Positions 24,563 through 60,042 of a stretch of 64,000 bases of DNA are shown here, one piece after another. The stretch is from contig CBDBLV010000005.1 of NCBI GenBank assembly GCA_965207225.1, positions 704,001 through 768,000 of the forward strand. Direction: 5' to 3'. A program made the translations under genes and the position numbers. The DNA is from Dehalococcoidia bacterium. GTDB lineage: Bacteria; Chloroflexota; Dehalococcoidia; Plut-88900. How positions within the stretch are numbered: the first letter of the stretch is position 1; the number at the start of each line of letters is the position of its first letter. The notes beneath the pieces are model-generated. The model made no database searches and had not been told where the DNA came from. It was given only the letters and a program-made list of their open reading frames with translations.

Positions 24563-24565
24563 CAG

Positions 24566-24949: not shown

Positions 24950-25008
24950 TGGCCCGAGGTTCTAGTGTGGGGTTCAGTTTCCACGATTAGACTTGCAGAG
25001 GGAATCAC

Positions 25009-26679: not shown

Positions 26680-26783
26680 ATCGGGTTTCCTAAACCGTCC
26701 TCACCCCGAATCTCCGTCGAGCAACTACGGGAGAGTCCAACTCTCCCATATTTGTTGTCATCGAAGCCAAGCGTATACACCCG

Positions 26784-26811
26784 ACCAAATCCTTTGCTGG
26801 TACAATGGCCC
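26784..26811 (+). promoter_or_regulatory. Extended -10 promoter, BVMO copy 2
   Basis: ACCAAATCCTTTGCTGGTACAATGGCCC, near-identical to the copy 1 upstream element. Confidence 0.6.
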
Positions 26812-26871
26812 GTGTCCCGGAGATGTGTAGCCGGGAGCGGATCGAAGATGCTGAGTCGCAGGGGGAGTCGT

Positions 26872-30525: not shown

Positions 30526-32007
30526 CTAGCCGGCCATTGCGCTCGTAGCCGCCCCCCGCCCCGCTATCCTCCCGAACACCGACCCCGCCATCAGCCCCGA
30601 CCCACCGGCATAGTTGTGGTAAAACAGCCCGCCCACCAGCTCGCCCGCCGCGTACAGGCCGGGGATCGGCGCGTCCTCCGTGTCCAATACCTGCGCCTCC
30701 GGCGAGATCTTCAACCCCCCGAACGTGAACGTAATCCCACAAGTCACTGCATAGCCAACGTAGGGCGGAGAGTCCAGCCTTTGCGCCCAGTTCGACTTCG
30801 GCGGCTCGACTCCAACCGTCCCCTTTCCATCCAGCACCGCCGGATTGAACTCTCCCTCCATCACACAGGAATTGAACTTGCCCACAGTCTCTACAAGGTT
30901 TCCGCCGTTAATCCCCAGGGCCTCGGCCAGCCCCGCAATCGAGTTTGACTCAGCCTTCGTCACCCGGGAGAAATAGTATTCGTCCCTCAGCTTCTCCGAC
31001 ACCTTCGCATCAAAAATCTGGAACGCCGCCCGGTGGGGCTGCTTCAGTATCTCCCGGCCGTACTTGGCATACGTGAAGTTCCGGATGTCCGCGCCCTCGT
31101 CTAGGAAGCGTTTCCCTTCTGTATTCACCACTATCCCCAGCGGGTATGAGTGCTTCTGGAACAGGTCCGCCACGTTCCGGTCCCCGAAAGTCGGGGCATT
31201 CAGGTCCCACGCCACCGCATGACACGAGCTCCAGTGCCCGTAAGGCTGCGCCCCGATATCCAGCGCCATCCGGATCCCGTCCCCCGTGTTAAACCGTGTG
31301 CCCCGTACCTTCGCCAGTTCCCACCCGGGCCCCAGGTACCGGGTCCGCATCTCCGGGTTCGACTCGAAGCCCCCGCACGCCAGCACTACCGCCCCCGCCT
31401 CCATGTCACGCAACCCATCCTCCGTCCGCACCGACACCCCCGTCACCCGACCCGACTCATCCGTCAGCAACCCCCTGACCTTGGCCCCGTACAATACCTC
31501 TACCCCCCTCGCCTCCGCCATATTGAACAGCTCGTCCACCAGCCCCTTTCCTCCCCCCACAGCCTCCGTGATCAGGCCTCCGTAGAATTGCTGCTTCCCC
31601 CCGACCTCGAAAGACTGCCGACCGTACATCAACACGTAACGCAGCCCTTGCTCCCTTATCCAGTGCACCGTCGGGTGGGCCTCCGAGACCAGCGTCTGCA
31701 GTAGGTCCGCATCCGATAGCCCCTCCGTCACCCGCATGATGTCTTCGTACATCCTGGACTGCGGGTAGGACCCTATCTCGATCGACGCAGCTTCCTCGTC
31801 ATTCATCTCGGGAATTAACGCCCTGATGTCCTCCAATCCCTGGTAGGGGAACCGGAACCCGCCGCCCGTGAAATAGGAGTTTCCTCCGCGCAGGTGTTCC
31901 GGGGCCTTTTCCAGCACCAGCACCCGGACTCCCTGCTCCCTCGCCGAAAGCGCGGCGCACAGTGCCGCATTACCCGCTCCAACTACTATTACGTCTGCAT
32001 CTCTCAA
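30526..32007 (-). CDS. FAD-dependent tricarballylate dehydrogenase TcuA-like flavoprotein
   Basis: VGAGNAALCAALSA, RGGNSYFT, GGFESN, RFLDEG, GITFTFGGL, NYAGGSGL. Confidence 0.85.
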   Translation of the reverse strand: MRDADVIVVGAGNAALCAALSAREQGVRVLVLEKAPEHLRGGNSYFTGGGFRFPYQGLEDIRALIPEMNDEEAASIEIGSYPQSRMYEDIMRVTEGLSDADLLQTLVSEAHPTVHWIREQGLRYVLMYGRQSFEVGGKQQFYGGLITEAVGGGKGLVDELFNMAEARGVEVLYGAKVRGLLTDESGRVTGVSVRTEDGLRDMEAGAVVLACGGFESNPEMRTRYLGPGWELAKVRGTRFNTGDGIRMALDIGAQPYGHWSSCHAVAWDLNAPTFGDRNVADLFQKHSYPLGIVVNTEGKRFLDEGADIRNFTYAKYGREILKQPHRAAFQIFDAKVSEKLRDEYYFSRVTKAESNSIAGLAEALGINGGNLVETVGKFNSCVMEGEFNPAVLDGKGTVGVEPPKSNWAQRLDSPPYVGYAVTCGITFTFGGLKISPEAQVLDTEDAPIPGLYAAGELVGGLFYHNYAGGSGLMAGSVFGRIAGRGAATSAMAG

Positions 32008-37515: not shown

Positions 37516-39540
37516 ATGACCCTGACGAAGGGCACTGAATCCACTGCCCTAAGCTTGCCCGAGGAGCTAATCATCATGCTCCTCAATGAGGAAACCGGCT
37601 ATTTCCACCAGGTGCCGGGCTGGGACTTGAATTGTGCTATCGCCGGCGCCGTAATCGCCGAGCTTTCCCTGCGTTCCCGTATAGACACCGATATGGAGTC
37701 CCTGTACCTCCTGGACGACACCCCTACAGGGGATTCAACCCTCGACCCCATCCTCAAGGAAATTGCTGACGAGCCTGTTCGTCATAACGCCCAGTACTGG
37801 GTCGAGCGCCTGGCTCCTCGCGCCGAATCCATCATAGATCTCACCTTGGACCGCTTGACAGGGCTCAAAATCCTCGAGCACCACGATGGCGAGTTCTGGA
37901 CACTATCTCGTTCTGCCTGGAGCGGCGGGTCACTCAGTGACTCGAGGAACGGCTCCGCCACGGAGTTCGTCAGGACGCGTATTGACAGGATCATCTTCGA
38001 AAACGAACTCCCCGACCCACGCGACATCATCATTATCTGCCTCATCAACACCTGCGACGTTTTCCGCTTCATGTTCCAGCTGGACGAGGAGTCAGAAAAG
38101 CGCATCGGGTTCATATGCAATATGGACTTGATCGCCCAATCAATTGCAACCGCTGTATCCCAAAACTTCGCCGGCCCTTTGTTGAGACGGTCGGCGCTTA
38201 CCAAGGATATCCCGAGAGTATCCCTGCGCAAAATGCTCTTCAATCCGCATCTTCGCAATGGGAACATACCGGCTCTCTTTGCCGACCTCGCCAAGGAGTA
38301 TGGCCCTGTTTTTGAGGTCCGTCCCCCGTTTTCCAAGTCTATGATCTTCCTCGCCGGCCCCGAGACGAATCACTGGGTGCATCGCCGCGGCCGAATGTAC
38401 CTGAGGGCAAGGGACTATTTTGAGGGTCTCGAGAAGGTCTATGGCGCGGCCGGGGTGTTGCCTTCTCTGGACGGCGCCGACCACTTCAGGCTCCGCAAGT
38501 CCTTGTCGTCTGCCTATTCCCGAAAAAGACTGGCAGATCAGATGGACGACCTGTTCGGCCATGCTCGTATGCACATGGCCCAGTGGAAGGTTGGTGAGTC
38601 CTATCCTGCAACCGGCATGAGCCGCTCCATGATAAACGCTCAAATATCACCCCTCCTGATCGGCGTGGAATCCCAAGACCTCATCGACGACTTGCTGAAG
38701 TTCAAAGAACGGGCCCTTGCCGTTCACATCCTGAAAGTTATGCCCAAGTTCATGCTGAAAACTCCCGGCATGAGGCGTCGTGCGAAAAAAATCGAAACCT
38801 TGCTTGAACGCATCCAGCGTGTGCATACCCCGGCTCAGCGAGCCGGGCAACATCGAAACCTTGTGGACGACTATCTGAGCCTCCACGCCAGCGACCCCCA
38901 GTTCGTGCCAGAGTCCAACCTGCGGTTCAATTTCACCGTGGCGCTGGTGGCCAGTGCATACCTTGGCGACGCATTCAGCTTTGCCTTATACGCTATGGCT
39001 TCGCAGCCTGAAATGTACGCGAAAATCCAAGCCGAAGCCGACGCCCTGTTCGACAATGGAGACCCGGGTCCCGATAACTTTGATCCCTCTTCAATCGACG
39101 TCACCCACAGGTTCCTAATGGAATGCCTGCGCATGTATCCCATCGTTCCGATGTCCCTGCGGCACGTGATGAATGCGTGTGTTGTTGAAGATTACGAATT
39201 GCCCGTGGGCTCAAGGGTCGCCATTGCCCAGACGGCCTCCCATTACATGAGCGATATCTTTCCCGACCCCTTCAAGTTCGATATAGACCGCTACCTCCCG
39301 CCGAGAAATGAGCACCGCAGTCCCGGGTACGCACCCTATGGACTCGGAACTCACACCTGCCTCGGATCCCGGTGGATGGAACTGCAGCTTGCCGTTAACG
39401 TCCTCATGGTGGCGCATTACTTTACGCTAAAGGTGTCGCCTCCCAATTTCAAGTTAAGAATCAATCCCTTACCCTCGTTGAAACCCAGCAAGAAGCTGAG
39501 ATTTCTCATTGCAGAGCAGCGGCGAGATTTGAACGTTTAG
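37516..39540 (+). CDS. GPP34 (GOLPH3/Vps74)-domain-cytochrome P450 fusion
   Basis: N-terminal ~215 aa LSLPEELIIMLL..AGAVIAEL..RI..PTGD..LD (GPP34 pattern); C-terminal ExxR (ECLR), FDIDRY and heme motif YGLGTHTCLG. Confidence 0.9.
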   Translation: MTLTKGTESTALSLPEELIIMLLNEETGYFHQVPGWDLNCAIAGAVIAELSLRSRIDTDMESLYLLDDTPTGDSTLDPILKEIADEPVRHNAQYWVERLAPRAESIIDLTLDRLTGLKILEHHDGEFWTLSRSAWSGGSLSDSRNGSATEFVRTRIDRIIFENELPDPRDIIIICLINTCDVFRFMFQLDEESEKRIGFICNMDLIAQSIATAVSQNFAGPLLRRSALTKDIPRVSLRKMLFNPHLRNGNIPALFADLAKEYGPVFEVRPPFSKSMIFLAGPETNHWVHRRGRMYLRARDYFEGLEKVYGAAGVLPSLDGADHFRLRKSLSSAYSRKRLADQMDDLFGHARMHMAQWKVGESYPATGMSRSMINAQISPLLIGVESQDLIDDLLKFKERALAVHILKVMPKFMLKTPGMRRRAKKIETLLERIQRVHTPAQRAGQHRNLVDDYLSLHASDPQFVPESNLRFNFTVALVASAYLGDAFSFALYAMASQPEMYAKIQAEADALFDNGDPGPDNFDPSSIDVTHRFLMECLRMYPIVPMSLRHVMNACVVEDYELPVGSRVAIAQTASHYMSDIFPDPFKFDIDRYLPPRNEHRSPGYAPYGLGTHTCLGSRWMELQLAVNVLMVAHYFTLKVSPPNFKLRINPLPSLKPSKKLRFLIAEQRRDLNV

Positions 39541-39573
39541 GTCACTCTTGCCCGACGTGAGCGAAGGAGGGGC

Positions 39574-40611
39574 CTAAAGGGGTTTGCGGGCCAGGAAGCA
39601 GTACAGCGGTGTGAATACCCCGGCCCTTCCACCTGCGACATAAGCATTCGCGGTCCGATCAAGCAACCTCACCACTTCCGATGACCCTTTTGGGAACATC
39701 CCCAGCGTCTCGGCCACCCTGGACATGGCTATGAATAGCTTACGTCCCAGCGGAATCCTGCGCAGGGCGTTGCCCAGCGTTCCATGCCGATTGTCCATCG
39801 GTTGATACCACGACGTGATTGGACCGTTCCCTTCCACAGCCCGGTCCTTCCCCTCGATAACTTCAAATCCCACCGATTCCAGGTCCCGATTCACCTCTCC
39901 CATAGTCGCTATATCCTTGAGCGCGATGCCACGCATAAGTTCCCTTTTGATGGCCTGGTGCCGGCTGTCTTCGGGGTCGAACCTGTTCGTCATGCACATC
40001 TCCTGGCCCCAGAAGAAGGCCCCGGGCTTCAGCACGCGGTAGATTTCCGCGAATGCCCCTGCCTTGTCCGGCGCATGGCACGTAGATTCAATCGCGTAGC
40101 CCCGGTCGAACGTGTTGTCCGCAATGGCGCCCATGTCCATGAAACTGCATGCAAGGTAGTCAACCATGTGGTCGAGTCCCGCCTCTTGATTCAATGACCT
40201 GGCCTTCTCTAACTGGACTTCGCTTCTATTGATCCCCGTGATCTTCACCCCTGCCTCCCGGGCCACCCGGCGCATAGGACCCCCAATCCCACACCCGACA
40301 TCAATCACGGTCATGCCTTCACGCAGTTCAAGCTTGGCGATCATCAGCCTCTGGTGCCGAATCTTGGATTCCTCCAGGGTTTCGCCGGGAGTTAGGGGGG
40401 CAAAGTGGAGGGACTCGCCCCAACCGAACACCATGAACTCATTGCACAGGTCGTAGTATTCCCTCACGGTTTCGGTGTGGTCGTAGTCTGTCGAGTTGGC
40501 ATTCCTCCCGTCGGCTCTTTTCATCCATCCGTCGAAGTGGTCAACGCGTCGGTGCACGTCCGACCCACGGTACGCGGCCTTCAGCCCACTGGATAGTTTC
40601 CGGAGTTGCAC
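39574..40611 (-). CDS. Sterol 24-C-methyltransferase (Erg6/SMT)-like SAM methyltransferase
   Basis: FGWGESLHF, DVGCGIGGP, YAIESTCHAP, YRVLKPG and Sterol_MT_C-like tail AGG..VFTP..FLARKP. Confidence 0.88.
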   Translation of the reverse strand: MQLRKLSSGLKAAYRGSDVHRRVDHFDGWMKRADGRNANSTDYDHTETVREYYDLCNEFMVFGWGESLHFAPLTPGETLEESKIRHQRLMIAKLELREGMTVIDVGCGIGGPMRRVAREAGVKITGINRSEVQLEKARSLNQEAGLDHMVDYLACSFMDMGAIADNTFDRGYAIESTCHAPDKAGAFAEIYRVLKPGAFFWGQEMCMTNRFDPEDSRHQAIKRELMRGIALKDIATMGEVNRDLESVGFEVIEGKDRAVEGNGPITSWYQPMDNRHGTLGNALRRIPLGRKLFIAMSRVAETLGMFPKGSSEVVRLLDRTANAYVAGGRAGVFTPLYCFLARKPL

Positions 40612-40623
40612 TAGCCTGGTTTC

Positions 40624-43101
40624 CTATGGTGATTCCTGTTCCTGCTCATGCCGCCTGTGGATATCATCTATAGCCACGTCCAGGTCGGTCCACATCCGTT
40701 CCACCATGGAGCGCAGCCGCATGTTCTGGTATGCGCCCCAGACTGTCATGGCCGTCGGCACAACCAGGATCGATACTATCAACGAGTAGACGATGGTTAT
40801 CGCCGCCGTTATCCCGAAGTCCCGAGATGCGTCTAGCGGTGAGAATACCAGCACCCCCAACCCCAGTCCCGTGGTCAGCGCGGATCCCAGCAGCGCCGAC
40901 CCCGTTGTTGCCAGAGTCTTGATAGCCGCCTTCTCCGGGCTCCTCAGCCGTGCGAACTCTTCCCGGTACCGGTGGATTATGTGGATCGTGTAGTCCACCC
41001 CGATCCCGATGGACAGCGCCGTGATGATCGATGTAACCAGTGAGTACGGGATGTCCAGCAGTGCCATGGTGCCCAACACCCAGATCAGGACCAGCACTAT
41101 CGGGCCCACGGCGAATACCGCCAGTATCGGCTGGCGGAGCGTCACCCAGAAGAAGATTCCCAGGACAGCCAGGGCTACCCCGACCGTGGTTGTAATAGCC
41201 TCAGTCTGCCGATTCGTGATCGCATCCGTGACCGTCACGGAGACCAAGCTCAAGGAAGTCGCCGTGATGGCTTCGTCGTCACCCGACCAAAGCTCCTCGA
41301 TCTCATCCTGGAGGATCTTGTTGGCCGCCGGATCGTCGTTGAATGCCGGGAACTGGAATAGCATCGTATCTATGCCATCGGGATTGTCCACCAGCACGTG
41401 TGCCGTAGCAGGGTCCAGCTCCTCCATCCTGTCAATCAACTCTTGCATCTTTACCGGATTCAACTCGAGCCCGGCATCTGCATCCCGATAGAGAGATGCC
41501 AATGTTTCATCGAACTTGTCGCCTGGGGCCCCACTGTCGTGCGTCCAGTCCCTTACCAGCAATTCGTATGAGGAAACTATCGGCCCCGCGGCCGCCTGGG
41601 GTCGACGCCTCTCATCCTCGAAAGCGCGCTCGAGGTCTCGCATGTTCAATAGCGTGCGCGTCTCCGTCGCCTCTGCCTTGACGATCACGCTCACCATCTC
41701 TGTAGATCCCCCCACCGACGCGTCCAGCGTATCCATGTCGGTCCTCAGCTCTCCACCCCTCGGCAGGATGTCCCGAATGCTGAACTCCGACTCGATGTCC
41801 GTGGCCGCAAACCCGAGCCCCACTGTAATCGCCAGCACTACCAGCAGGAATGGAGCGGGCCGCCTAGTTACGTTCCTCCCCAACACCTCAGCCAGTCTCT
41901 CGACCCCCGGAAGCGCCTGGGCAATGGGCCGAGGTGGTTTCAGCGTTCCTCGGGCCTCTCGCCTCCTGTCTATGATCGTCCTGCCTGCCGGGACAAAGGT
42001 AAGCATTACAATCAGGCTTAGCCCCACCCCCAGCCCCCCGATGATCCCGAAGTCTCCTACTATCTCCACCGTCGAGAACAGGCTCACCAGAAGGCTCGCG
42101 ATCGTCGTCACCGCAGCCAGCACCAGCGGCAGAATCACGTTTCGCAGTCCCGTCCGTATCGCAGGCGTCACTGTCAGGCCCGCAGTGCGTTGCTCCCTGT
42201 AGTGCGAAATCATCTGGATCGCGTAGTCAACCGTAAGGCTGATCACGATGATTGGCACCATCGTTGTCAGTGAGTTCGGAGGCCCCGTTGCCCCTAGGGC
42301 ATTTGGCCCGAGCCACCCCTCCGCCCCGACTATCCAGATCAACGCTACCAGGAGGCCTACCAGCGTAAGCAGCAGGTCGGTGATGGTGCGCATGAACAGC
42401 AGGAGCAGCCCCGCAATCAGCAAAAATGCAATCCCAATAAGCGGGAGCATTCCCGTTTCCGTGGCTTCCTTGTATTCGTCTTCGATTATCACTGGGGAGA
42501 GGCTGCTTACCTCCAGGCGCCCTTCGCTCTCTACCGCCAGCTCGTGTATTCTTCGCTCCGCTTCCTCGACCCGCTCGTCCCCCGTGTCCCGAAGCCGGAT
42601 GTTGGCTATCGAGATCTGAGTGCCATCCGTGTCAGTTCCTGTCAATGCCTCCAACGCCCTCTTGATCTCCGGAGGCCCGGTCGCCGCCTCTATTCTGGCT
42701 TCGGTAACTGACTCAAAGTCCTCCACCTGCAGAAGGACCCGTACCAGGTCCGTCGGCGCAATTACTGGGTCGGTCGGCGCTAGCAGCCCCGACACCGCCG
42801 GATCCCCGACCACCTCGTTGATCAGGTCGTCCATCTGGGACAACCCGTCTGGAGTCAGGGTGTCGCCCCGGAAGATCAGCGTCACCACGCTAGTCTCTCC
42901 CGACTCTCCGAACAGTTCGTCAATCTCATTCATCGCCGCGGTTATGGGACTTCCCTTGGGCAGGGTTGCTTCGGTTTCGGGAGGAGGCGCGCGGCGATCC
43001 GCGCCCATCGCCAGCAACACTGTAATGATCAGCAGGATCAATATCGTTATGTATGGACGGGCAGTAATCACCCAGCTAAGCCAACCGAGGATTTTGTTCA
43101 T
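40624..43101 (-). CDS. MMPL/RND-family lipid transporter
   Basis: 825 aa in two repeats (1 TM, large loop, 5 TM); SLTVDYAI and GIGVDYTIH; SALTT. Confidence 0.92.
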   Translation of the reverse strand: MNKILGWLSWVITARPYITILILLIITVLLAMGADRRAPPPETEATLPKGSPITAAMNEIDELFGESGETSVVTLIFRGDTLTPDGLSQMDDLINEVVGDPAVSGLLAPTDPVIAPTDLVRVLLQVEDFESVTEARIEAATGPPEIKRALEALTGTDTDGTQISIANIRLRDTGDERVEEAERRIHELAVESEGRLEVSSLSPVIIEDEYKEATETGMLPLIGIAFLLIAGLLLLFMRTITDLLLTLVGLLVALIWIVGAEGWLGPNALGATGPPNSLTTMVPIIVISLTVDYAIQMISHYREQRTAGLTVTPAIRTGLRNVILPLVLAAVTTIASLLVSLFSTVEIVGDFGIIGGLGVGLSLIVMLTFVPAGRTIIDRRREARGTLKPPRPIAQALPGVERLAEVLGRNVTRRPAPFLLVVLAITVGLGFAATDIESEFSIRDILPRGGELRTDMDTLDASVGGSTEMVSVIVKAEATETRTLLNMRDLERAFEDERRRPQAAAGPIVSSYELLVRDWTHDSGAPGDKFDETLASLYRDADAGLELNPVKMQELIDRMEELDPATAHVLVDNPDGIDTMLFQFPAFNDDPAANKILQDEIEELWSGDDEAITATSLSLVSVTVTDAITNRQTEAITTTVGVALAVLGIFFWVTLRQPILAVFAVGPIVLVLIWVLGTMALLDIPYSLVTSIITALSIGIGVDYTIHIIHRYREEFARLRSPEKAAIKTLATTGSALLGSALTTGLGLGVLVFSPLDASRDFGITAAITIVYSLIVSILVVPTAMTVWGAYQNMRLRSMVERMWTDLDVAIDDIHRRHEQEQESP

Positions 43102-43226
43102 CGTTTACCCTTCCGTATCAGGCGTCCATGGGTTTCGAAACAGCCGTCTTCCGGACCAGTTCATTTGGCCTATCCCTAACGACATCCTTCCACTGCATCT
43201 TCTCTCGAGGTCCGGTCCCAGTCCAA

Positions 43227-44333
43227 CTACGATACTCCCGAATGTACCCTCGCCACGCCTTCGGGCTCGCCTGCCATCGACCCGTTCGATTCGAAGGAGT
43301 CGGCGTAAAACTGCTTGCAGTATTGCCTGAAGGGTATGATCTCCCCATCGGAAAGACATAGGCGCGGCTGGGCCCGGTAGCGCTTACGGCTCCAGATGAC
43401 CACGTCTTGCATCACATCCCCGCGCTGAAATCCCGCAACGAATCTGTTGAATACCGGGGCCCGATATCTCACCGGCAAGAACCCCAGGCCCGCAAACCAC
43501 CGTTTCGGCTTCCTTATCTCCCTTGCCTGGGAGACCAGTGACAGGTCGATCAGCTTGCCGTCCACGGGCGTCGCCAGTATCCACAGGCGCGTATCCACCC
43601 CTATCGACTTCTCTCGGATCTCAACGTACGAATACCCGAGCCCGTATATCTGCGTATTTGCAGATACGTCCAGGGTGACCTCCCCGATCTTCGCCACCCT
43701 GCGCTTACTCCTGAAGTCAAACCGGCTCTCAAGGTAGTGTCTATCCACCAGGAGCTTTCCCACTCTCTTCACATTGCCGTATCCATGTATATAGCGGAGG
43801 TGCGCCAGGTCCACGGAGTTTTCCGTCGTATCCTGCGGATGGCCGGGAAACCGGATTGTCTGGATCTTGGTTCTGGTCCAGCCTGTCTGGTCGGGTTCCT
43901 CTTGTGGAAGGTCCCATTGCGGCCCCCGCCCCCCGATTCCCCACCACCCCAAAATCAGCCCCGCAATCTCTCGCGTCTCGAAAACCCTTAGTTTTGCTGT
44001 TTTCGGCGGCTCGGCGAAGGGGGTAGCAACGCACTGCCCGGCAGCATCAAATTCGAATCCGTGAAACGGGCATACCAGCCGACCCCCGCGCACGCACCCT
44101 CCGGCATCGCTGCCCAGGTACGATCCCAGGTGCGGGCAATACGCCTCGGCCACGCAAACCCGACCCTTATCGCCGCACCAGGCTACAATCTCCTCCCCCA
44201 TCCATGTCCCTTGGAGGAGCTTGGCCTTTTCTATAGCCTTTCGGCTCGCGATGAAATACCAACCCTCCGGGAAGGGAGAGGGGGGTTCGTCCAGCATTGG
44301 TGGCCTGTGTCGGGTCGTTGTCAACCTGCGCAC
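43227..44333 (-). CDS. Rieske non-heme iron oxygenase, Neverland/KshA family
   Basis: FPEGWY, YCPHLG..CPFHG, ENSVDLAHLRYIH, C-terminal D.VIW..K.Y...P.L...DG.I..FRQY.KQFY. Confidence 0.88.
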   Translation of the reverse strand: MRRLTTTRHRPPMLDEPPSPFPEGWYFIASRKAIEKAKLLQGTWMGEEIVAWCGDKGRVCVAEAYCPHLGSYLGSDAGGCVRGGRLVCPFHGFEFDAAGQCVATPFAEPPKTAKLRVFETREIAGLILGWWGIGGRGPQWDLPQEEPDQTGWTRTKIQTIRFPGHPQDTTENSVDLAHLRYIHGYGNVKRVGKLLVDRHYLESRFDFRSKRRVAKIGEVTLDVSANTQIYGLGYSYVEIREKSIGVDTRLWILATPVDGKLIDLSLVSQAREIRKPKRWFAGLGFLPVRYRAPVFNRFVAGFQRGDVMQDVVIWSRKRYRAQPRLCLSDGEIIPFRQYCKQFYADSFESNGSMAGEPEGVARVHSGVS

Positions 44334-44485
44334 CTTGCTTTTACGGTCGAGTTGGCCGTAGCTTTATCCGTCAAGGTTATGTCTTACCTTAGTTGTACTG
44401 TTTGGACAGCGCGAACTCTATCACGCCCAGTTTCAGGCGGGCAATCTCAGGCGCTTATTGGCGTATTCACCAGTGCAGGATCGCA

Positions 44486-45949
44486 TCATGCGAAACCGTA
44501 GGCTTCCTCCGTATCCTCAACGCGCATCAGCAGCGCCGGCAAAATGGAGAACAGCGCAAGGAAACCCGCTATCATGAACAGGTTCTGGAAGACTGTCACA
44601 CCGGCCTCTATCAGGGGTGCTTCCGTCTCCTCGAAGGTTTCACCCAGGGTCACATCCGCAGTGAGCGTGTAGAAACGCTCTATGCCCCACGCCGAAAGGG
44701 CTGCCAGCCCCAACGCCATACCGACCATCCGAGACGCTGTCACCAGCGACGCCGCCGCTCCCCAGTAGTCTCCCGGCGCCGCGCTAAGGGCGCTCACAGT
44801 GATCGGTGGGATTACCAGCCCGAACCCCAGGCCCGTGATTACCAGAGGCGCCGTAAGCCTGAGTTGCTCAACCTGTGTCTCCCAGCCACTCATGAACAGC
44901 AGGCCCGTGCCTATGAATGCCAGGCCGGTAATGCACACCGCGCGCACACCCGTCCACCGCAGGATGTAGCCTCCCACTATTGCTCCCACGGGTATTGCCG
45001 CCGTGAGCCGGAACAGGTGCAGGGCGCTCACCCAGGCCGGTTTCTCCATCACGGTAGCTGCCATCAACGGCACCGCTACCAGGGAGATTATCAGCGCCAC
45101 CCCCACCAGGAACTGGGTCGCATTGGAGGACAGGAAGGCCCGCGAGTTGTACAGAAATGAGGCCAGCAGAGGCTGGGCGGTACGCCTCTCCATCACGATC
45201 AGTATCCCCACCAAAACGACTCCCAGGGCGATCATGAAATACGGGACTATCGACTCCCCGGAAAAGATCGTCCTCTGGGAGAGCGCCAGGCTCAATGTGG
45301 TAAGAGCTCCTCCCAGGATCAGCGCCCCGAGGTAGTCCATTTTCGCCGATGGGTTGGCCCGGTTCTTCAGGATGGCCAATAATGCGATTAGAAAGAAGCT
45401 CTGCGGGATGTCCAGCCAGAATATCCACCTCCACCCGATCCACTCGATAATCCCACCACCATACAAAGGCCCCAGCACCGACCCCGCCTCCGCCGACGCC
45501 GCAACCAGCCCAAGGGCCACCCCTCTCTTCTGCGGCTCGACGGTCCCCACTGCCATCGCGAGCCCTATAGGAACCGTGGCCCCACCCCCCGCCGCCTGCA
45601 GCACCCTCGCCGTTACCACCCACGGAAAGTTCGGCGCCACCGCCACAAGCGCCGACCCTATGGAGAACAATACAAGTGCCGCCTGGAACATCCTCACCCG
45701 ACCATGAACGTCGGAAAGCCGCCCCGCTAGCGGCATTGCTACCGTATAGCTCACCAGGTATGCCGTTACAATCCAGGAGGCCGTGTCCAGGTCCGTAAGC
45801 GGGATCTCCAGGTCCACCATCACACTGGGCAGTGCGGCAACCACTACGGTCTGGTCAAGGGCGGTGGAGAATACCCCCAGGCAGAGGATCCCCAGGATGA
45901 CCGACTGCGAAGAACCAAGGGCCATCAGGCCCGACCTGGCTGACTTCAC
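44486..45949 (-). CDS. 14-TM MFS transporter, P55 (Rv1410c)-like
   Basis: ALDQTVV, WIVTAYL..Y...MPL.GR.SD..GR, RMVGM..G.AALSAWG..RF as recalled for mycobacterial P55. Confidence 0.88.
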   Translation of the reverse strand: MKSARSGLMALGSSQSVILGILCLGVFSTALDQTVVVAALPSVMVDLEIPLTDLDTASWIVTAYLVSYTVAMPLAGRLSDVHGRVRMFQAALVLFSIGSALVAVAPNFPWVVTARVLQAAGGGATVPIGLAMAVGTVEPQKRGVALGLVAASAEAGSVLGPLYGGGIIEWIGWRWIFWLDIPQSFFLIALLAILKNRANPSAKMDYLGALILGGALTTLSLALSQRTIFSGESIVPYFMIALGVVLVGILIVMERRTAQPLLASFLYNSRAFLSSNATQFLVGVALIISLVAVPLMAATVMEKPAWVSALHLFRLTAAIPVGAIVGGYILRWTGVRAVCITGLAFIGTGLLFMSGWETQVEQLRLTAPLVITGLGFGLVIPPITVSALSAAPGDYWGAAASLVTASRMVGMALGLAALSAWGIERFYTLTADVTLGETFEETEAPLIEAGVTVFQNLFMIAGFLALFSILPALLMRVEDTEEAYGFA

Positions 45950-46722
45950 GGCTGCGAAGCTGTCTCCGGGACCTGGATTTCCACCGGCAGGTTGATATCG
46001 CGTATCTTGATCAGGCGGCTTGTTTCGGGGGCGTCGTCCGCGAAGATTTTTCCCAGGATTTGGAATTGTGTGATCGCGTGGTCGGCCTCGCTGAACCAGA
46101 AGCCCAGCCTGAGCTCGTGTCCCGGGTCAACGGAGGTAATCAGTTCCCCCAGGTCCTCTGATAAGGCGTCTCCTTGTACCCGGATGCTCTCTACCCCGCC
46201 AATCGACTCCCTTCCAGTGATCTGCGTGTTCTCCATCGCGGGCAATACTCGGGCCAGGATGGCGCCTATCCCCCCAAAATTGAAGGGCACTTGTTCCAGC
46301 GGAAGAGGTAGCCACGGCGCATCGGCCGAGAATTTGATGAATGAGTCCTCGCCTACCGCCGTCATCTCGATCACAACGAATCCGAAACTGGGATTCTCCA
46401 CGTTCACGTACATCTTGAAGCCGTCCGGCGACTTCACCTCCCCCTCCACGCTCTTCAGGGTCATCCCGAAGAACTCCTGCCCCGACTCCTTCTCATCCAC
46501 CATCTCAAACTTCACCGTTGAAATCGCTGTCAGTTTCTCCTCAGCGCTGGAGACCAGTTCATCAAGGGTGATCTCGGGCATCGGTGTTGCTGTTGGCTCA
46601 ACAGTGGCGGGGGCCTCCGCTTCGGGCTCGGCCCCCGACCCGCACGCCGCCCCCAAAACCAGCAGACCTATCAAGAGAATAGTGACGGCAACCCTTGAAC
46701 GTACAGCCTCGGACAACTTCAT
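45946..46722 (-). CDS. LppX/LprAFG (LprG)-like lipoprotein
   Basis: Signal peptide with lipobox GAAC; beta-rich body, GRESIGGVES, C-terminal INLPVEIQVP; 4-nt overlap with the P55-like MFS. Confidence 0.8.
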   Translation of the reverse strand: MKLSEAVRSRVAVTILLIGLLVLGAACGSGAEPEAEAPATVEPTATPMPEITLDELVSSAEEKLTAISTVKFEMVDEKESGQEFFGMTLKSVEGEVKSPDGFKMYVNVENPSFGFVVIEMTAVGEDSFIKFSADAPWLPLPLEQVPFNFGGIGAILARVLPAMENTQITGRESIGGVESIRVQGDALSEDLGELITSVDPGHELRLGFWFSEADHAITQFQILGKIFADDAPETSRLIKIRDINLPVEIQVPETASQP

Positions 46723-50701: not shown

Positions 50702-52111
50702 CTATTTGGCAACCGCCGGCCAACGCCTGTCCATCTGGCACCCTTCCAGTGCCTTTGCAATCCTGAGCAGCATGTGCTCCTCGAAGTGTCGCGCCACAAG
50801 CTGTACACCTATCGGCATACCCTCGTTGCTCCAGCCGAATGGCACATTCATCGCCGGAGACCCCGTCAGGTCCCAGGGCACCGTCGCTCGAAGGCTGTGC
50901 CTTGCCCCCATCGTCCTCCCCCCGATCACAAACTCCTCCCGACCTGCCTCGTACGCCGGCATTGGCGCCGTCGGGCACAGGAACAGGTCATACCGCGAGA
51001 AGTATTCCCCTACCTCCCACTTGAGCGACTCCCAGTTAAAGATGGCCTCCAGGTATTCGTCCATCGTCTTGTCGGGTGAGTCGATGTAACGCTTGCGCAG
51101 CAGCGGCGTGAGTTCGCCCTCCCGCCCCCCGACTATGGACATCAAAAGTGGCTTAGCCTCAACCGGGTAGACCACCGACGAGATAACCTGCGCATCATTA
51201 TCCCCCAGCCCCGGGATCTCCACCTGCTCCACATCCAGCCCCAGCCCTGACAGCGCATCCGCCGCATCAGCTACCACCTTCTGAACTTGCTCCTCCACCG
51301 CCGTACCGCCCGTCGAGCTCCAGCCGATCCGCAGCTTGGGCAAAGGGCGATCCAGGTCTGTATAGTCGGGCACCGGTACTGGCGGTGCGTATATGTCCTC
51401 GCCGTCCGGTCCTGCCATAATGCCAAGCTCAAGGGCCACGTCTTGCACGTTTCGCGCCATAGGCCCGACGTGTATCGCTCGGAACAGCGTCTGAGGCACG
51501 ACCCGCGTATACGGCACCCGACCCAGCGTCGGCTTCAGCCCGGCTAGCCCGCAGAAGCTCGAAGGCTGCCGGATCGACCCCCCCAGGTCCGTCCCCACAC
51601 CCAGCGGCGACATACCCGTCGCCAGCGCAGCCCCCTCCCCGCCGCTCGAGCCCCCCGGCGTATACCCGATCTTCCACGGGTTATGCGTCGCCCCGAACAG
51701 CAGGTTGTTCGTCTCCCACCAGAGCGCAAATTCCGGCAGATTGGTCTTTCCAAGCAGGATGCCCCCCGCCCCCTTCAGCCTCCTGTACACCGTCGAATCC
51801 TCTGTCGATATGTTGTCCGCCAGGATCTTGGAACCTTGAGTTGTCCTCAGCCCGGCCACCTCCACGCAGTCCTTCAGCGTGAATGGCACCCCGTGAATGG
51901 CTCCCAACTCTTCTCTCCGCGCTATCGCAGCGTCGGCTTCCCTGGCCTTCTCCAGGGGGTCGGGCGCAAAGGTGACGATAGCGTTGAGTGTCGGGTTCAG
52001 CCTCTCAATACGGTCGAGGTGTGCCTGCACCACCTCCTGCGACGAGAACTTCTTGCTCCGTATTCCTTCCGCCAGCTCCGTTCCCGAAAGCCAGCAAATC
52101 TCCTGTTCCAT
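50702..52111 (-). CDS. Amidase-signature family hydrolase (start moved to 52111)
   Basis: GVPFTLKD, GKTNLPEF, GGSSGG, GTDLGGSIR; SD GAGGAG. Confidence 0.93.
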   Translation of the reverse strand: MEQEICWLSGTELAEGIRSKKFSSQEVVQAHLDRIERLNPTLNAIVTFAPDPLEKAREADAAIARREELGAIHGVPFTLKDCVEVAGLRTTQGSKILADNISTEDSTVYRRLKGAGGILLGKTNLPEFALWWETNNLLFGATHNPWKIGYTPGGSSGGEGAALATGMSPLGVGTDLGGSIRQPSSFCGLAGLKPTLGRVPYTRVVPQTLFRAIHVGPMARNVQDVALELGIMAGPDGEDIYAPPVPVPDYTDLDRPLPKLRIGWSSTGGTAVEEQVQKVVADAADALSGLGLDVEQVEIPGLGDNDAQVISSVVYPVEAKPLLMSIVGGREGELTPLLRKRYIDSPDKTMDEYLEAIFNWESLKWEVGEYFSRYDLFLCPTAPMPAYEAGREEFVIGGRTMGARHSLRATVPWDLTGSPAMNVPFGWSNEGMPIGVQLVARHFEEHMLLRIAKALEGCQMDRRWPAVAK

Positions 52112-52127
52112 CTCCAAAACTCCTCTG

Positions 52128-53345
52128 CTAATGCAACGCCGCCGAAGAAGCCGCCCCCTTCTCATTCACCAGCCGACCATCCCGGAACCTGTCTAACGAG
52201 AACGGCTTGATCAAGTCAGGCGCCTCCCCCGTATCGATTAGCTCCGCCATCATCTTCCCCGATATCGGCGCTGCCTTGAACCCGTACGTCCCCCACCCAC
52301 AGTTAAGCAGGAACCCCTCCAGCCCCGACACCTTCCCCATGATCGGAGCATAGTCCGGTGTCATGTCGCATATCCCCGTCCACTGCCTCAGGATGTTTAT
52401 GTTCTTCAGGAACGGGAACAGCCTCAACGCTCCTGCTGATAGCTCCTCGATCATCGGGAACGTCGATTTGTACGAGTAGCTCGTGTAGTGGTCCACCGCC
52501 CCGCCGATCACCAGCTCCCCCCTGTCTGTCTGGTAGACATAAACATGGAAATTCGTCGATGACACCCCGATGTCCAGCAACGGCTTCAGAGGCTCCGTCA
52601 CCATCGCCTGCAGAGGGTGCGTCACCATCGGCAGGTCAAGCCCGACCATCGCCGCCACACTCGAGGCCCATGCCGCCGTGCAGTTCACCACCATATCCGT
52701 CTGAATCGTTCCCCGGTTTGTCCGTACACCCGTCACCCGACCATTGCTCCGGTTAATAGCGGTGATCTCGGTAAACGGGTGAATCTCCGCACCCTTGCGG
52801 TCGGCGCCCCGGGCGTAGGCCCAGATAACGGCGTCGTGCCGGATCACCCCGCCGGGCGGATGGAATAGACCAGCCAGTACCGGAAGGTCCTTCCCCTCCC
52901 GCATGTCTAACAGGGGAGCTAGTTCTCGAATCCCGTCCAGCCCGACAATCCTGCTGTCCACCCCTAATGCCGCATTAGCATCCGCCCGAAGCCTCAGCGC
53001 ATACACCGACGACTCCGTGTGCGCCAGCTCCAGCCGACCCATCTGGCTGAACAGCAGGTTGTACCCCAGCTCCTGCGACAGGTCTTCATACATCTTCACG
53101 CTTTCGTTGAAGAACGGAATGCCCTCGGGGGTTACGTAGTTGGCCCGGATAATCGCCGTGGACCGAGCGCTCGCCCCTCCCCCCAGGTACCCCTTATCCA
53201 GCACTGCAACGTTGGTGATCCCCTTCTGCCCCAGGTAGTAGGCAATGGCCAGCCCGTGCACCCCCGCCCCGGCTATTACGATGTCATAGCTCTTCTTGAG
53301 GGGCTCGTCCCTCCACATCCGCTCTTTCTTGAACAGCTGGAACAT
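52128..53345 (-). CDS. soxB: Sarcosine oxidase beta / N-methylglutamate dehydrogenase MgdA-like (start 53345)
   Basis: GAGVHGLA, R.T.IIRANY, RHDAV.WAYA, PLQAMVTEP, GWGTYGFKA.P; TAATG coupling with the upstream gene. Confidence 0.9.
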   Translation of the reverse strand: MFQLFKKERMWRDEPLKKSYDIVIAGAGVHGLAIAYYLGQKGITNVAVLDKGYLGGGASARSTAIIRANYVTPEGIPFFNESVKMYEDLSQELGYNLLFSQMGRLELAHTESSVYALRLRADANAALGVDSRIVGLDGIRELAPLLDMREGKDLPVLAGLFHPPGGVIRHDAVIWAYARGADRKGAEIHPFTEITAINRSNGRVTGVRTNRGTIQTDMVVNCTAAWASSVAAMVGLDLPMVTHPLQAMVTEPLKPLLDIGVSSTNFHVYVYQTDRGELVIGGAVDHYTSYSYKSTFPMIEELSAGALRLFPFLKNINILRQWTGICDMTPDYAPIMGKVSGLEGFLLNCGWGTYGFKAAPISGKMMAELIDTGEAPDLIKPFSLDRFRDGRLVNEKGAASSAALH

Positions 53346-54541
53346 TACAGTGGAACCACCCTCAGGCTCCGCTCCTGCGCCGTAAGCGACTCCCAACCCG
53401 TCTCCGTGACCAGTACCGTCTCGCTGAACCCCACCCCCCGCTGCCCCGGAACATGAATAGTCAAAGGAGTGTGAAACACCATGCCCGGCTGCAGCGGCTC
53501 GTCAACGCCCTCGGCTATGAAAATCAGGTCTTCGCCCCAGATCGACGGCACCCCAATCCCGACCGAATACCCGAAGTTCTCGATGAAGAACGCCTCCTCC
53601 GTAACCGGCCCGACCGCCTTCTTGGCCTCCATCGCCACGTCGTGGGCCGTGCGTTCAGGCTTGATGTTGGATGTCAGCACATCGAAGGTCCGAAGCATGG
53701 CGTCGGCCATCCTCTTCGTCAGGTCATCGGGCTCTCCGAAGGTCGCCGTTCGCATCATCAGGGCGTCGTAGCGCTTGTAGGAAGCCCCGAGTTCCATGTA
53801 GATGACATCACCTGGCGCAATCGGGTGCCGGGCGTGGAAAGAGTGGTGAAACCCCGACCTGTAGCCGGTCATGATGTTTTGCCACTTCGTGAAATACTCG
53901 CTGCCGGCTCGGATCATCACCTCGTGGCACGCCGCCGAAAGATCGTTGTCCGTCTTGCCCGGCCCTATCTCCGCCATCGCAGCCTCCACCCCGAGCACCG
54001 TCAGCCGACCAGCCTCCCGAATGTATTCTATCTCCGCCGCCGACTTGCTCTTCCGGACCTCGTACACCAAACGGGAAGCATCTACAAGCGAGGCATTAGG
54101 CAGCATCTCCGTCAGCCTGCGGTGCTGGTTTACGTGCAGCCCCGACACCCCGGTCTCCACGCCAATGGCCTTACTCCCCAGCCCTCTACTCTTCACGATC
54201 TCCGATAGCAGATCCATCGCCCGCGCCGCATCGTAGTAGTGGTAAAGCTCGACGTCCCTCACCCACCCAGTGGCGAACACCGCGCCCAGTTCCACGTCCG
54301 CTATGTGGATTGCCGGGTCTCCATCCATTGGAAGCACCAGGCAGGCATACCGGTTCGGAATTATTGTGTTGTATCCCGTCAGGTAGTACAGGTTAGGAAG
54401 ATGCGTGACCAGAAGGACATCGATTCCCCCATCACCCATCAGCTTGCGTACCTTGGCTATGCGCCCCTGGAACTCCTCCTCGGGAAAGGGAAGCTCAGAG
54501 GGTGTCGGGTTTTCTTGTAGGAATTTTAGTGGGTCCATCAA
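53345..54541 (-). CDS. M24 pita-bread hydrolase, EutD/DoeA/creatinase-like
   Basis: Creatinase_N-like start (LPFPEEEF..RI..V, NLYYLTGY); ELGASYKRY, GYSVGIG.P..WGE, GMVFH, SETVLVTETG. Confidence 0.85.
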   Translation of the reverse strand: MMDPLKFLQENPTPSELPFPEEEFQGRIAKVRKLMGDGGIDVLLVTHLPNLYYLTGYNTIIPNRYACLVLPMDGDPAIHIADVELGAVFATGWVRDVELYHYYDAARAMDLLSEIVKSRGLGSKAIGVETGVSGLHVNQHRRLTEMLPNASLVDASRLVYEVRKSKSAAEIEYIREAGRLTVLGVEAAMAEIGPGKTDNDLSAACHEVMIRAGSEYFTKWQNIMTGYRSGFHHSFHARHPIAPGDVIYMELGASYKRYDALMMRTATFGEPDDLTKRMADAMLRTFDVLTSNIKPERTAHDVAMEAKKAVGPVTEEAFFIENFGYSVGIGVPSIWGEDLIFIAEGVDEPLQPGMVFHTPLTIHVPGQRGVGFSETVLVTETGWESLTAQERSLRVVPL

Positions 54542-54550
54542 TTGGCCTCG

Positions 54551-55294
54551 CTACCAGGGTATCCCCGGGCTGTCTCCCGAGATCCGTTCAAATGCCTCGA
54601 CCCCGACCGGCCCCACCCCCACGCCCTTCCCACCATGCACCATCGCCTCCCACATGTACTCTCCGTAGTCCCGGGTCACGTACAACTGGTAACCGTACTC
54701 CCCCGACACATCACCGCGAACTATCAGCGAATGCACCTCGGCCGTCTTGACCTGAGCGCAGGCTCCATCAAGAAATCGATCGGGGTCCAGGTCCAACTCA
54801 ACTATCCTGGCGAGGGCGTCTCCCACCTTTGGCCCGACCACCCCAATCCCCGCCCACGCCGATGTCAGATCAATCATGTACGCACAACTGGCCAGTTGCT
54901 CTTCCAAAGCCTCCGCCACCGACTCCCGTGCCCCAGGAGAAGTGAACACCATTGCCTCGTCGTACGTCAGTCCCGCTACAGTCACGGACTCCCGACTGTC
55001 CTCACTGGCCGTCGGGCTTGGACACCTTACCGCCTTGCCCACGACGAGGGGTTCCGGCAATGACAGTGCTTGGGCCACTCCGGCCAGCACGTCGGCGCCC
55101 TGGAATGACAGTTTGCCTACCGGGCTGATATCGAAAATGCCCCCGCCTCCTTTCACCCTCGCAACTTCTTCATCAACAGCAGTGTACCGACCCGGGAGTT
55201 TCCATCCGTCCCTGTAGATAAACTCGGCCCCCAGGTCTCGGTGAGCGCCGTGCATGGCCGTCAGCTTTGCAATCGCCGTTGTCATCGATTTCAT
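54551..55294 (-). CDS. soxG: Sarcosine oxidase gamma / MgdD-like (GcvT folate-binding fold)
   Basis: DISPVGK, DLTSA...I.V.GP, LDL, R.YGEYMW; position in operon. Confidence 0.75.
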   Translation of the reverse strand: MKSMTTAIAKLTAMHGAHRDLGAEFIYRDGWKLPGRYTAVDEEVARVKGGGGIFDISPVGKLSFQGADVLAGVAQALSLPEPLVVGKAVRCPSPTASEDSRESVTVAGLTYDEAMVFTSPGARESVAEALEEQLASCAYMIDLTSAWAGIGVVGPKVGDALARIVELDLDPDRFLDGACAQVKTAEVHSLIVRGDVSGEYGYQLYVTRDYGEYMWEAMVHGGKGVGVGPVGVEAFERISGDSPGIPW

Positions 55295-55304
55295 CTACCC
55301 CTGC

Positions 55305-58256: not shown

Positions 58257-58257
58257 T

Positions 58258-58542
58258 TCAGCCCCTCTCCCCTGAGGATTGCACGGGCCCCTCACCCGGC
58301 CAGAACGTCGCCGACACGCTGTTGTTCAGGGTGTTCCGCTCTGCCTGGAACCACCGTCGGCACCCGTACTTGTGGTACCACCACTCCCGCTGCAACCCAG
58401 CCACGTTCTTACGCACGTAGAAATACGCCGACCAAGTCTCCTCGGAGTCCCCCGGCGAGGGGCGAGCCGTAACCTCGCCCCCGTATCGGAAGTCGTTGAC
58501 GGAACGGGAGCCGCAGTTTGGGCAGTTCAGCAGGAAGGACAT
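58258..58542 (-). CDS. soxD: Sarcosine oxidase delta / MgdB-like
   Basis: CPNCG.R...F.YGG, EWWYH..GC..WF...RNT. Confidence 0.93.
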   Translation of the reverse strand: MSFLLNCPNCGSRSVNDFRYGGEVTARPSPGDSEETWSAYFYVRKNVAGLQREWWYHKYGCRRWFQAERNTLNNSVSATFWPGEGPVQSSGERG

Positions 58543-58636
58543 ATCAGCACCCGCGACTGACCACTGCCCGTGAACAGGTTGGAGGATTCGATGGGATGAA
58601 GGCGTTAAGGCTCAACAGACCGGATCGACCGGGCCC

Positions 58637-59995: not shown

Positions 59996-60042
59996 CCTTA
60001 GCTCCGGTTTGGGTTCTGGAAATATGCTCGTGGTGAGAAAGA

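Follow-up and report, generated by a model that had tools for sequence, protein, structure and literature searches.

The nearest described relatives of the genes treated here come from two lines of work on sponge symbionts, one on sterol C-24 methyltransferases (SMTs) and the other on the fusion of a GPP34 domain to a cytochrome P450. According to the main text of Brown 2023 (PMC10070321), eight of ten sponge-symbiont SMTs methylate desmosterol in vitro, some SMT genes are clustered with sdmA and sdmB homologues, and the SMT of a Chlamydiae metagenome-assembled genome (MAG) was proposed to methylate host sterol; the overall reading was de novo synthesis, with an oxidosqualene cyclase (OSC) in 13 of 24 SMT cases. 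In the main text of Ferreira 2025 (PMC11706023), 656 of 663 multi-domain GPP34 proteins are GPP34–P450 fusions, all from sponge symbionts. This architecture, GPP34_L, is listed for 80% of 75 sponge Dehalococcoidia genomes (Table 1), is traced to a single origin followed by spread across phyla, is expressed in A. aerophoba metatranscriptomes, and was proposed to be an effector that binds phosphatidylinositol 4-phosphate (PI4P) and blocks phagosome maturation. Here we describe a locus in which an SMT and such a fusion are neighbours: six contiguous genes at positions 37516-46722 of a 64,000-nucleotide stretch of a Dehalococcoidia genome, referred to below as the window (G000:C5:704001-768000; G, C and L numbers denote our genomes, contigs and loci). 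The genes belong to a larger module of sterol-type enzymes and pumps, found mostly in genomes in which no OSC was detected.

Two other precedents deserve mention. Kelly 2022 (PMC9531527) reports that SMT, ERG24, CYP51, LSS and FDFT1 are enriched and have been transferred in Ircinia symbionts of many phyla. The ERG24-CYP51-LSS cluster described there contains a cyclase and CYP51, whereas the present module has neither and carries a different P450. The closest functional precedent is Coxiella burnetii, in which, as the text of PMC8787468 describes, the orphan sterol reductases Stmp1/CBU1206 and CBU1158, homologues of delta-24 and delta-7 sterol reductases, act on host sterols, and loss of Stmp1 changes the fate of the vacuole. 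The two cases have in common a bacterium that lives with a host, lacks a sterol pathway and retains ERG4/ERG24 enzymes. Coxiella, as portrayed in that text, is an intracellular pathogen with one or two orphan enzymes and no methyltransferase, oxygenases or dedicated pumps; the module, in contrast, is multi-enzyme, and its carriers are extracellular or phagocytosed sponge symbionts.

The genome of 4.03 Mb is assembled in five contigs. An open reading frame (ORF) check of the window returned six genes with exactly the boundaries drawn in the first-pass annotation, which had taken them for a contiguous set of sterol- or lipid-type genes; Pfam and NCBIfam, and Foldseek for the lipoprotein, bear this out. 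The GPP34–P450 fusion, of the 'GPP34_L' architecture, is encoded on the plus strand (37516-39540, 674 aa; Pfam GPP34 91.6 bits and p450 125.5 bits). The other five genes lie on the minus strand. They encode a sterol C-24 methyltransferase homologue of the Erg6/SMT family (39574-40611, 345 aa; class I methyltransferase plus Sterol_MT_C), an RND transporter of the HAE3/MMPL type (40624-43101, 825 aa; MMPL 149.9 bits, about 12 hydrophobic segments), a Rieske non-heme-iron oxygenase with a KshA-type C-terminal domain (43227-44333, 368 aa; Rieske 57 and KshA_C 86 bits), an MFS transporter with DHA2/EmrB-type similarity and, like P55, a lipoprotein partner (44486-45949, 487 aa; MFS_1 146.8 bits), and that lipoprotein, of predicted LprG/LppX fold (45946-46722, 258 aa), whose gene shares 4 bp with that of the MFS transporter.

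The fusion was scanned against one genome per species, which gave 192 relatives, and the best 80 (67-100% identity) were used as loci. Linkage was scored by tblastn of the window proteins (coverage at least 0.5, E<=1e-10) over a distance of up to 10 kb from the fusion. By this measure SMT and Rieske genes were each linked in 65 of the 80 loci, the RND gene in 54, and the MFS and LprG-like genes in 20 each; the remaining window genes tested as flanks reached 0-9. Clustering of the ORFs of these loci added one more gene to the module, which encodes an FAD protein of 462 aa in the Amino_oxidase family (hereafter the flavoprotein) and was linked in 44. Record titles assign 56 loci to Dehalococcoidia/Chloroflexota, four to Gemmatimonadota, three each to Latescibacterota and Thermodesulfobacteriota/Syntrophobacterales, two each to Acidimicrobiia and Pseudomonadota (the latter including 'Candidatus Poriferihabitaceae') and one to Nitrospirales, and nine are left unassigned. 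The fusion recurs in at least seven bacterial phyla, and the co-occurrence of the module genes is far above chance. Since gene order varies between lineages, inheritance of a single ancestral layout does not by itself account for the linkage. A scan of metagenome contigs seeded with the SMT yielded 41 loci, many of them short, with the fusion adjacent in 19 (15 at 61% identity or more) and the Rieske gene in 11.

Among close relatives, a profile set of 41 genomes was used (G000 and 40 relatives, the close ones placed in Dehalococcoidia). The six-gene block is syntenic in G001, G005, G007 and G008, that is, in four of the 12 SMT loci fetched and in four of the eight other genomes of the same genus. 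The first-pass annotation had staked its reading on the genes being found together elsewhere, and so they are, both in these blocks and at the 80 fusion loci. An intact fusion and an intact Rieske gene are present in seven of the 41 (G000, G001, G005, G007, G008, G016 and G032). Precisely these seven, and none of the other 34, also carry the flavoprotein and an ERG4/ERG24-type reductase. In G000 the flavoprotein gene is unlinked (C1:197243-198598; 74.5% identical to the L082 copy), and among solved structures its product is closest to LkcE (97 bits). The reductase (G000:C5:170009-171070) scores 131.8 bits with ERG4_ERG24 against a cut-off of 27 and has five hydrophobic segments; it is the lower-scoring of the ERG24 paralogues (104-138 bits). 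Matches to ERG4_ERG24 were found in 40 of 50 searchable carrier genomes and in none of 14 control genomes. The module is therefore larger than the six genes to which it had at first been confined, with two members elsewhere in G000, and the proposal that it handles sterols gains from a sterol-reductase homologue with the same phyletic pattern.

A DDE transposase is encoded about 2 kb from the flavoprotein gene (L110 6594-8051, G000:C1) and a serine recombinase about 4 kb from the reductase gene (L156 2351-3931, G000:C5), neighbours that fit mobile origins for the two genes.

In four further genomes, of the same genus as G000, the module appears to be decaying. Fusion and Rieske genes persist in G002, G003, G004 and G006 only as fragments or as copies with internal stops (G002:C1:417636-422589; G003:C7:943119-948236; G004:C7:655967-659288; G006:C1:1374481-1375176), the RND gene is also broken in G003 and G004, and neither the flavoprotein nor the ERG4/24 gene was found in these four genomes. 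Assembly errors could account for single stops, but not for truncations.

The fusion of G000 is 68-73% identical to those of Latescibacterota, Gemmatimonadota, Acidimicrobiia, Nitrospirales and Gammaproteobacteria, compared with 52-58% for the main RpoC segments between these genomes. When 81 fusions were placed in a FastTree tree, a quick method with a midpoint root, the Chloroflexota label undergoes five changes and those of Gemmatimonadota and Latescibacterota three each, and a Thermodesulfobacteriota clade and an Acidimicrobiia clade are nested among Chloroflexota rows. The fusion identities set against RpoC, together with the mixed labels of the tree, indicate that the module has spread horizontally. 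As to habitat, a run with the label 'sponge metagenome' contains contigs that span 37516-39775 (44 differences) and 41056-46722 (288 differences) at 95-98% identity. Along with the sponge-only fusion of Ferreira 2025, as its main text presents it, they agree with the sponge-symbiont setting that had been suggested for this DNA. Two loci (L053 and L063) bear 'Plut_' isolate names, unlike those of sponge MAGs; were they to come from another kind of host, the description 'exclusive to sponge symbionts' (Ferreira 2025) could prove too narrow.

The window contains no cyclase. The single triterpene cyclase of G000 is a squalene-hopene cyclase about 192 kb upstream of the window (C5:511889-512845; 679-aa ORF; TIGR01507 835.9 bits, OSC model 257.8 against a cut-off of 851). 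It stands beside hpnD, which encodes an HpnD-type presqualene diphosphate synthase (locus G000:C5:510389-514345), and the organism is probably a hopanoid producer. Searches of the G000 genome found no OSC, squalene epoxidase or FA_hydroxylase, and tblastn found no second P450 domain at E<=1e-5. The first-pass annotation's phrase 'without a cyclase' thus holds for the window and for sterol cyclases, but not for the genome, which has the hopene cyclase.

The cyclase search was extended to 50 of the 80 carrier genomes, mostly long or single contigs. No SQHop_cyclase match at E<=1e-20 was found in 26 of these, and the other 24 have at least one, which in 23 cases includes a hopene-cyclase-like match (423-493 bits). 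An OSC-like gene is present in three only (G044, G059 and G090; SQHop_cyclase matches of 184-195 bits). These score 720-728 bits with TIGR03463 against 262-286 with the hopene model and are fused or adjacent to squalene epoxidase; G044 and G059 carry a hopene-cyclase-like match as well. The remaining 47 of the 50 are without an OSC-like match, and in G016, at 100% completeness, genes for the SMT, fusion, Rieske protein, RND pump, flavoprotein and reductase are all present but one for a cyclase is not. Since 26 of the 50 carriers and G016 lack any cyclase match, self-made hopanoids or sterols are not the general substrate. The premise that the sterol comes from outside the cell is supported by G000, in which neither OSC nor squalene epoxidase was found, and by the 47 of 50 carriers without an OSC-like match.

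A few carriers, of the type of G032 and G059, may also make sterols de novo. Fusions of squalene epoxidase and OSC, 1114-1263 aa long, occur at G032:C4:449119-454957 (L114), at G059:C55:36162-42000 (L112) and in L113 and L111, and the two genes are adjacent but not fused in G044. Directly upstream of the fused gene in G032 and G059 is a second ERG24 gene (237-244 bits), an arrangement of the type described in the text of Kelly 2022. A genome search for 3Beta_HSD was uninformative, as it matched all 14 of the control genomes.

With respect to the individual enzymes, the SMT scores 58.6 bits with Sterol_MT_C against a cut-off of 21.7, and 66.9 with Methyltransf_11. The aromatic motif of Region I (YEYGWG..FHF) is present as FGWGESLHF in the segment FMVFGWGESLHF, as judged by eye only against C. 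albicans ERG6 as given in a bioRxiv preprint. Region II reads IDVGCGIGGP, against the consensus LD(A/V)GCG(V/I)GGP, and Region III reads IESTCHAP, one Ala-to-Ser change from IEATCHAP, a region that the TwSMT1 paper, the source of these consensus sequences, describes as potentially unique to sterol methyltransferases (PMC5595292). The matches listed in a homologue search, at least 120, were all close relatives, with no link to characterised SMTs; few of those listed carried a name from their source, and then only 'class I SAM-dependent methyltransferase'. The SMTs of Brown 2023 are of the same family (methyltransferase plus Sterol_MT_C) and from the same habitat, and by analogy with those enzymes methylation of a delta-24 sterol is the putative activity of the G000 protein. 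Relatives 69-75% identical to it lie on metagenome contigs that share a prefix with one SMT contig tested by Brown; that contig, JGIcombinedJ30088_10000835, was itself not returned by the metagenome scan, which gave two others with the same prefix (L135 and L149). A second SMT paralogue, about 39-42% identical, is found beside the module or beside another Rieske gene in L023 (9509-11490, G032:C4) and also in L042, L051, L052, L053, L089 and L091.

In the Rieske protein the motifs CPH...CPFH and DLAHLRYIH are visible, which we take to be forms of the Rieske-cluster motif CxH...CxxH and of the mononuclear-iron motif. It shares these features with KshA, Neverland and SdmA, together with the KshA_C domain (86 bits against a cut-off of 23.3). 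It is not a full-length KshA orthologue, as KshA structures align at 86 bits over residues 17-184 only, nor an SdmA orthologue (NF052579, 33.1 bits against a cut-off of 600). An ESM Atlas search returned generic Rieske/KshA_C clusters, with a 'cholesterol 7-desaturase family' cluster at rank 18 as a lead only.

The closest solved structures to the P450 part of the fusion are CYP51 (71 bits) and CYP46A1 (59 bits). Aligned with CYP51, its I-helix has a five-residue gap and reads ...LGDAFSF against ...AGHHTSSGTTAW, so that the usual Thr is missing. The G-D-A-F of the I-helix and the heme Cys ligand are invariant across 81 aligned members of the fusion family. Identification as CYP51 was rejected on the low best score and on the I-helix signature, although the Cys ligand is kept. 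C-22 desaturases, like the fusion P450, have D-A in place of D-T in the I-helix, a point not confirmed in the paper searched for it. With the Rieske protein outside KshA and SdmA and the P450 outside CYP51, the ergosterol-like product (delta-7, delta-22) envisaged in the first-pass annotation is conjecture. The fusion has no N-terminal hydrophobic, signal-like segment. In a weak alignment (E 1.3e-4) whose second half is unreliable, residues R90 and W81 of GOLPH3 stand opposite Ala43 and Pro34 of its GPP34 domain; these two, with R171 and R174, presumably line the PI4P pocket of GOLPH3.

Two side observations concern the same family. In L060 a second fusion gene lies 2.8 kb from the first. A short GPP34 gene that stands alone (G000:C5:309637-310236, about 229 aa) is 38% identical to the N-terminal domain of the fusion and occurs in 13 of the 41 genomes, that is, in 11 of 12 of the same family (all but G009) and in G016 and G037.

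Of the transport proteins, the RND protein falls under every curated cut-off applied (HAE3 221.8 against 351.9 bits, HpnN 104.9 against 751.85, BstA 22.1 against 1400) and the MFS protein falls under that of the NCBIfam DHA2/EmrB model (efflux_EmrB, 182.3 against 230.2). The lipoprotein reaches 22.7 bits with Pfam LppX_LprAFG, under the cut-off of 24, and a PDB sequence search gave nothing at E<=1. Its AlphaFold model (16 homologues, pLDDT 79.2) matches LprG (3mha) with a Foldseek E of 1.9e-12 and a TM of 0.81 on the target. The structures of M. tuberculosis LprG, LprF and LppX are matched at E 1.9e-12 to 1.4e-9, and on this model the protein is predicted to have the LprG/LppX fold. Residues 5-33 are hydrophobic, and Cys27 is invariant in the 16 homologues. 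In M. tuberculosis, LprG and P55 are encoded in one operon and serve as a lipid exporter. The resemblance to this pair (Rv1411c-Rv1410c) lies in an LprG-fold lipoprotein gene placed directly upstream of, and overlapping, the gene of a multi-spanning DHA2/EmrB-type MFS protein. The differences are a sequence identity of about 15%, the Pfam score under the cut-off and the other phylum, and any cargo assigned to the G000 pair is putative.

In diderm phyla a tripartite AcrB/HlyD/OEP pump replaces the RND pump. An AcrB-type pump is encoded in 14 of the 80 loci, none of which has an HAE3-type RND match, and HlyD-type and OEP-type partners are present in 11 loci each. In these versions the OEP (TolC-like) and HlyD-type genes stand ahead of the AcrB-type pump (L047:3920-5506; L083:5599-6816), and a 270-aa TPR protein is encoded between the SMT and Rieske genes (L078:7132-7944 and nine similar loci). 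Outward movement of the product is suggested by the efflux-type pumps, by the LprG/MFS pair, which resembles the mycobacterial lipid exporter, and by the tripartite pumps of diderms.

Gene content, family membership, linkage and phyletic co-occurrence were observed directly, as was the finding of no sterol cyclase in G000. With two families known from enzymes that act on sterols (SMT and ERG4/ERG24), two more that include sterol-active enzymes (KshA_C Rieske and CYP51-like P450) and no sterol cyclase found in 47 of 50 carriers, exogenous sterol is the most economical substrate. We therefore regard it as moderately probable that this is a horizontally transferred module with which sponge-associated bacteria edit exogenous sterols, from the host or its food, and move them through the envelope. 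Host sterol would partition into the bacterial membrane, where the GPP34 domain would hold the otherwise soluble P450. The P450, the Rieske oxygenase and the flavoprotein would oxidise or desaturate the sterol ring or side chain, and one of these oxidative enzymes may create the delta-24 double bond from a saturated host sterol. SMT requires such a double bond. The SMT would methylate C-24, the ERG4/ERG24 reductase would saturate the 24(28) or a ring double bond, and the RND pump and the LprG-like/MFS pair would carry substrate or product outward.

Several observations weigh against this view. The tie of the SMT to the rest of the module is loose. Full-length SMT orthologues (66-96% identity) occur in 12 of the 41 profiled genomes (G000-G008, G010, G016 and G032), in unrelated contexts in G002-G004, G006, G010, G016 and G032, and several long SMT-seeded metagenome loci hold the SMT alone. 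In the four genomes with module remnants the SMT is intact, beside sarcosine oxidase genes; since it persists where the fusion and Rieske gene have decayed, its tie to them is not obligatory, and from its wider distribution, in part independent of the other module genes, it can evidently function on its own. The pattern of seven genomes in 41 amounts to about three lineages plus losses within one genus, so that the relatives are not independent. Redox partners were sought in the 80 loci by clustering those ORFs of at least 55 aa that did not belong to known genes; no ferredoxin or reductase was found, the largest extra family being present in at most 11 loci. The P450, Rieske protein and flavoprotein are without a close characterised relative. 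The Sterol-sensing domain match of the RND protein (Pfam, 49.8 bits) has little weight, as such matches are frequent among RND proteins. By gene content G000 makes squalene and hopanoids, and its RND pump is weakly HpnN-like. Finally, G000 is a MAG (92.3% complete, 8.33% contamination), and MAGs may miss genes.

A rival reading is a module that acts on the bacterium's own non-sterol lipid, such as squalene, hopanoids, carotenoids or another isoprenoid, with the SMT-like enzyme methylating it and the pumps placing it in the envelope. SMT-like enzymes of Botryococcus methylate squalene, the flavoprotein is within the amine-oxidase/CrtI-type superfamily, and G000 has a hopene cyclase and hpnD. 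The HpnN score of the RND pump (104.9 bits) also counts for this reading but is far under its cut-off, and the 26 carriers and complete G016 without a squalene or oxidosqualene cyclase argue that hopanoids are not the general substrate. The SMT keeps IE[A/S]TCHAP, described in PMC5595292 as potentially sterol-methyltransferase-specific, and an ERG4/ERG24 reductase co-occurs with the module. We consider an endogenous lipid unlikely as the substrate.

Detoxification or catabolism, in which the oxygenases and flavoprotein would attack host sterols or oxysterols, opening or inactivating them for expulsion by the pumps, is harder still to credit and seems to us improbable. It draws on the KshA_C domain, KshA-type Rieske enzymes being those that begin steroid ring degradation, and on the linked efflux-type transporters; Coxiella Stmp1, according to the text of PMC8787468, lowers vacuolar cholesterol and 25-hydroxycholesterol. 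Against this, the SMT and the ERG4/ERG24 reductase are tailoring enzymes of the biosynthetic type, and neither acyl-CoA nor meta-cleavage genes accompany the module as conserved neighbours in the 80 loci, genome-wide hsa and kshB not having been searched. A FAD_binding_2 gene upstream (30526-32007), considered as KstD and hence as a steroid-degradation context, was rejected, as it is TcuA (578 bits).

That the module forms the last part of a de novo sterol pathway, with the ring supplied by an unrecognised cyclase or by another member of the consortium, we hold to be very improbable. It would follow the interpretation that the texts of Brown 2023 and Kelly 2022 give to sponge-symbiont SMT clusters, and three of the 50 carriers and G032 do have squalene-epoxidase/OSC genes and an adjacent ERG24 gene. 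The 47 carriers without an OSC-like match speak against it, as does G000, which is without squalene epoxidase, FA_hydroxylase and a second P450 or CYP51; according to their titles, many carriers are single-contig chromosomes.

Least probable is that the fusion is exported as an effector to bind host PI4P, halting phagosome maturation as Ferreira 2025 proposes, and has functionally unrelated neighbours. In favour of this, its GPP34 domain is homologous to GOLPH3/Vps74, and the main text of PMC11706023 reports the fusion from sponge symbionts only and as expressed in A. aerophoba. Against it, the SMT, Rieske, flavoprotein and pump genes stay linked to the fusion in different phyla, with a shared phyletic pattern, the protein has no signal-like segment, and in the weak GOLPH3 alignment the presumed pocket residues R90 and W81 stand opposite Ala43 and Pro34. 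The effector and sterol-editing ideas could be combined, with sterol editing as the means of evasion.

As regards priority, sponge-symbiont SMTs with sdmA-like genes, the GPP34–P450 fusion and the enrichment of sterol genes are already in print in the texts cited above. To that extent the first-pass annotation, which knew of no description of the module, was only partly right. No literature was found that links the fusion to a sterol module, within the limits that Figure 3 and the supplements of Brown 2023 may draw such a cluster. The main text of Brown 2023 has no mention of P450, transporter or GPP34, and an OSC accompanies about half of its SMT cases, whereas none was found in G000 or in 47 of 50 carriers. 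In the main text of Ferreira 2025 the words 'sterol', 'lipid' and 'methyltransferase' never occur, and flanking genes are described for the short form only. The G000 fusion has the architecture of GPP34_L (N-terminal GPP34, C-terminal P450), in the same taxa and in association with sponges. Unlike the protein of Ferreira's effector account, it lies in a conserved module of sterol-type enzymes and pumps. Relative to the texts cited, what is new is the fusion, KshA-like Rieske oxygenase, LkcE-like flavoprotein, ERG4/24 paralogue, SMT and dedicated pumps as one module, and its presence mostly in genomes in which no OSC was found.

The surroundings of the locus in the window are chromosomal, with rpoB/C, nuo, folD, a gamma-glutamyl transpeptidase, and sarcosine-oxidase and methylamine genes. 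A minus-strand run at 50702-62943 encodes an amidase, a DAO-type oxidase, a creatinase-like M24 peptidase, GCV_T proteins, a 996-aa sarcosine-oxidase-alpha-like protein, a glutamine-synthetase-like protein and three glutamate-synthase-like pieces (Glu_synthase, GXGXG, GATase); the run resembles an island for methylamine/N-methylglutamate and sarcosine or creatine utilisation. The GC content falls to 0.53 at 24001-26000, a HicB-like antitoxin gene lies within 24001-28518, and two neighbouring FMO/Baeyer-Villiger-type monooxygenase genes are found at 25009-26679 and 26752-28518.

Returning to the editing of exogenous sterols, a more far-reaching form of it can be put forward tentatively. Symbionts of at least seven phyla may share a complete toolkit for host sterols, with the P450 tethered to membranes by a GOLPH3-like domain; methylation, desaturation and reduction of host sterols at the symbiont surface, with export of the products, might alter the sterol composition of the bacterial envelope or of the phagosome so that digestion is escaped, part of the unconventional 'sponge' sterols (24-alkyl, with extra double bonds) that serve as animal biomarkers might be bacterial, and the GPP34 factor would be a sterol enzyme rather than a PI4P decoy. 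If the sterol-editing reading is true, the literature on SMT and the 24-isopropylcholestane 'first animals' biomarker and that on the GPP34–P450 protein, in which this is the gene most specific to sponge symbiosis, describe one system. Side-chain alkylation of sponge sterols need then not stem from sponge genes or from bacteria with a full pathway, and inferences from SMT copy number or the presence of OSC would be weakened. For enzymology the module offers five families: a P450 that lacks the I-helix Thr, a new clade of KshA-like Rieske proteins, an LkcE-like flavoprotein, an ERG4/24 paralogue and an SMT. For the symbionts themselves it would offer a biochemical route to persistence in a phagocytic host, parallel to the sterol reductases of Coxiella.

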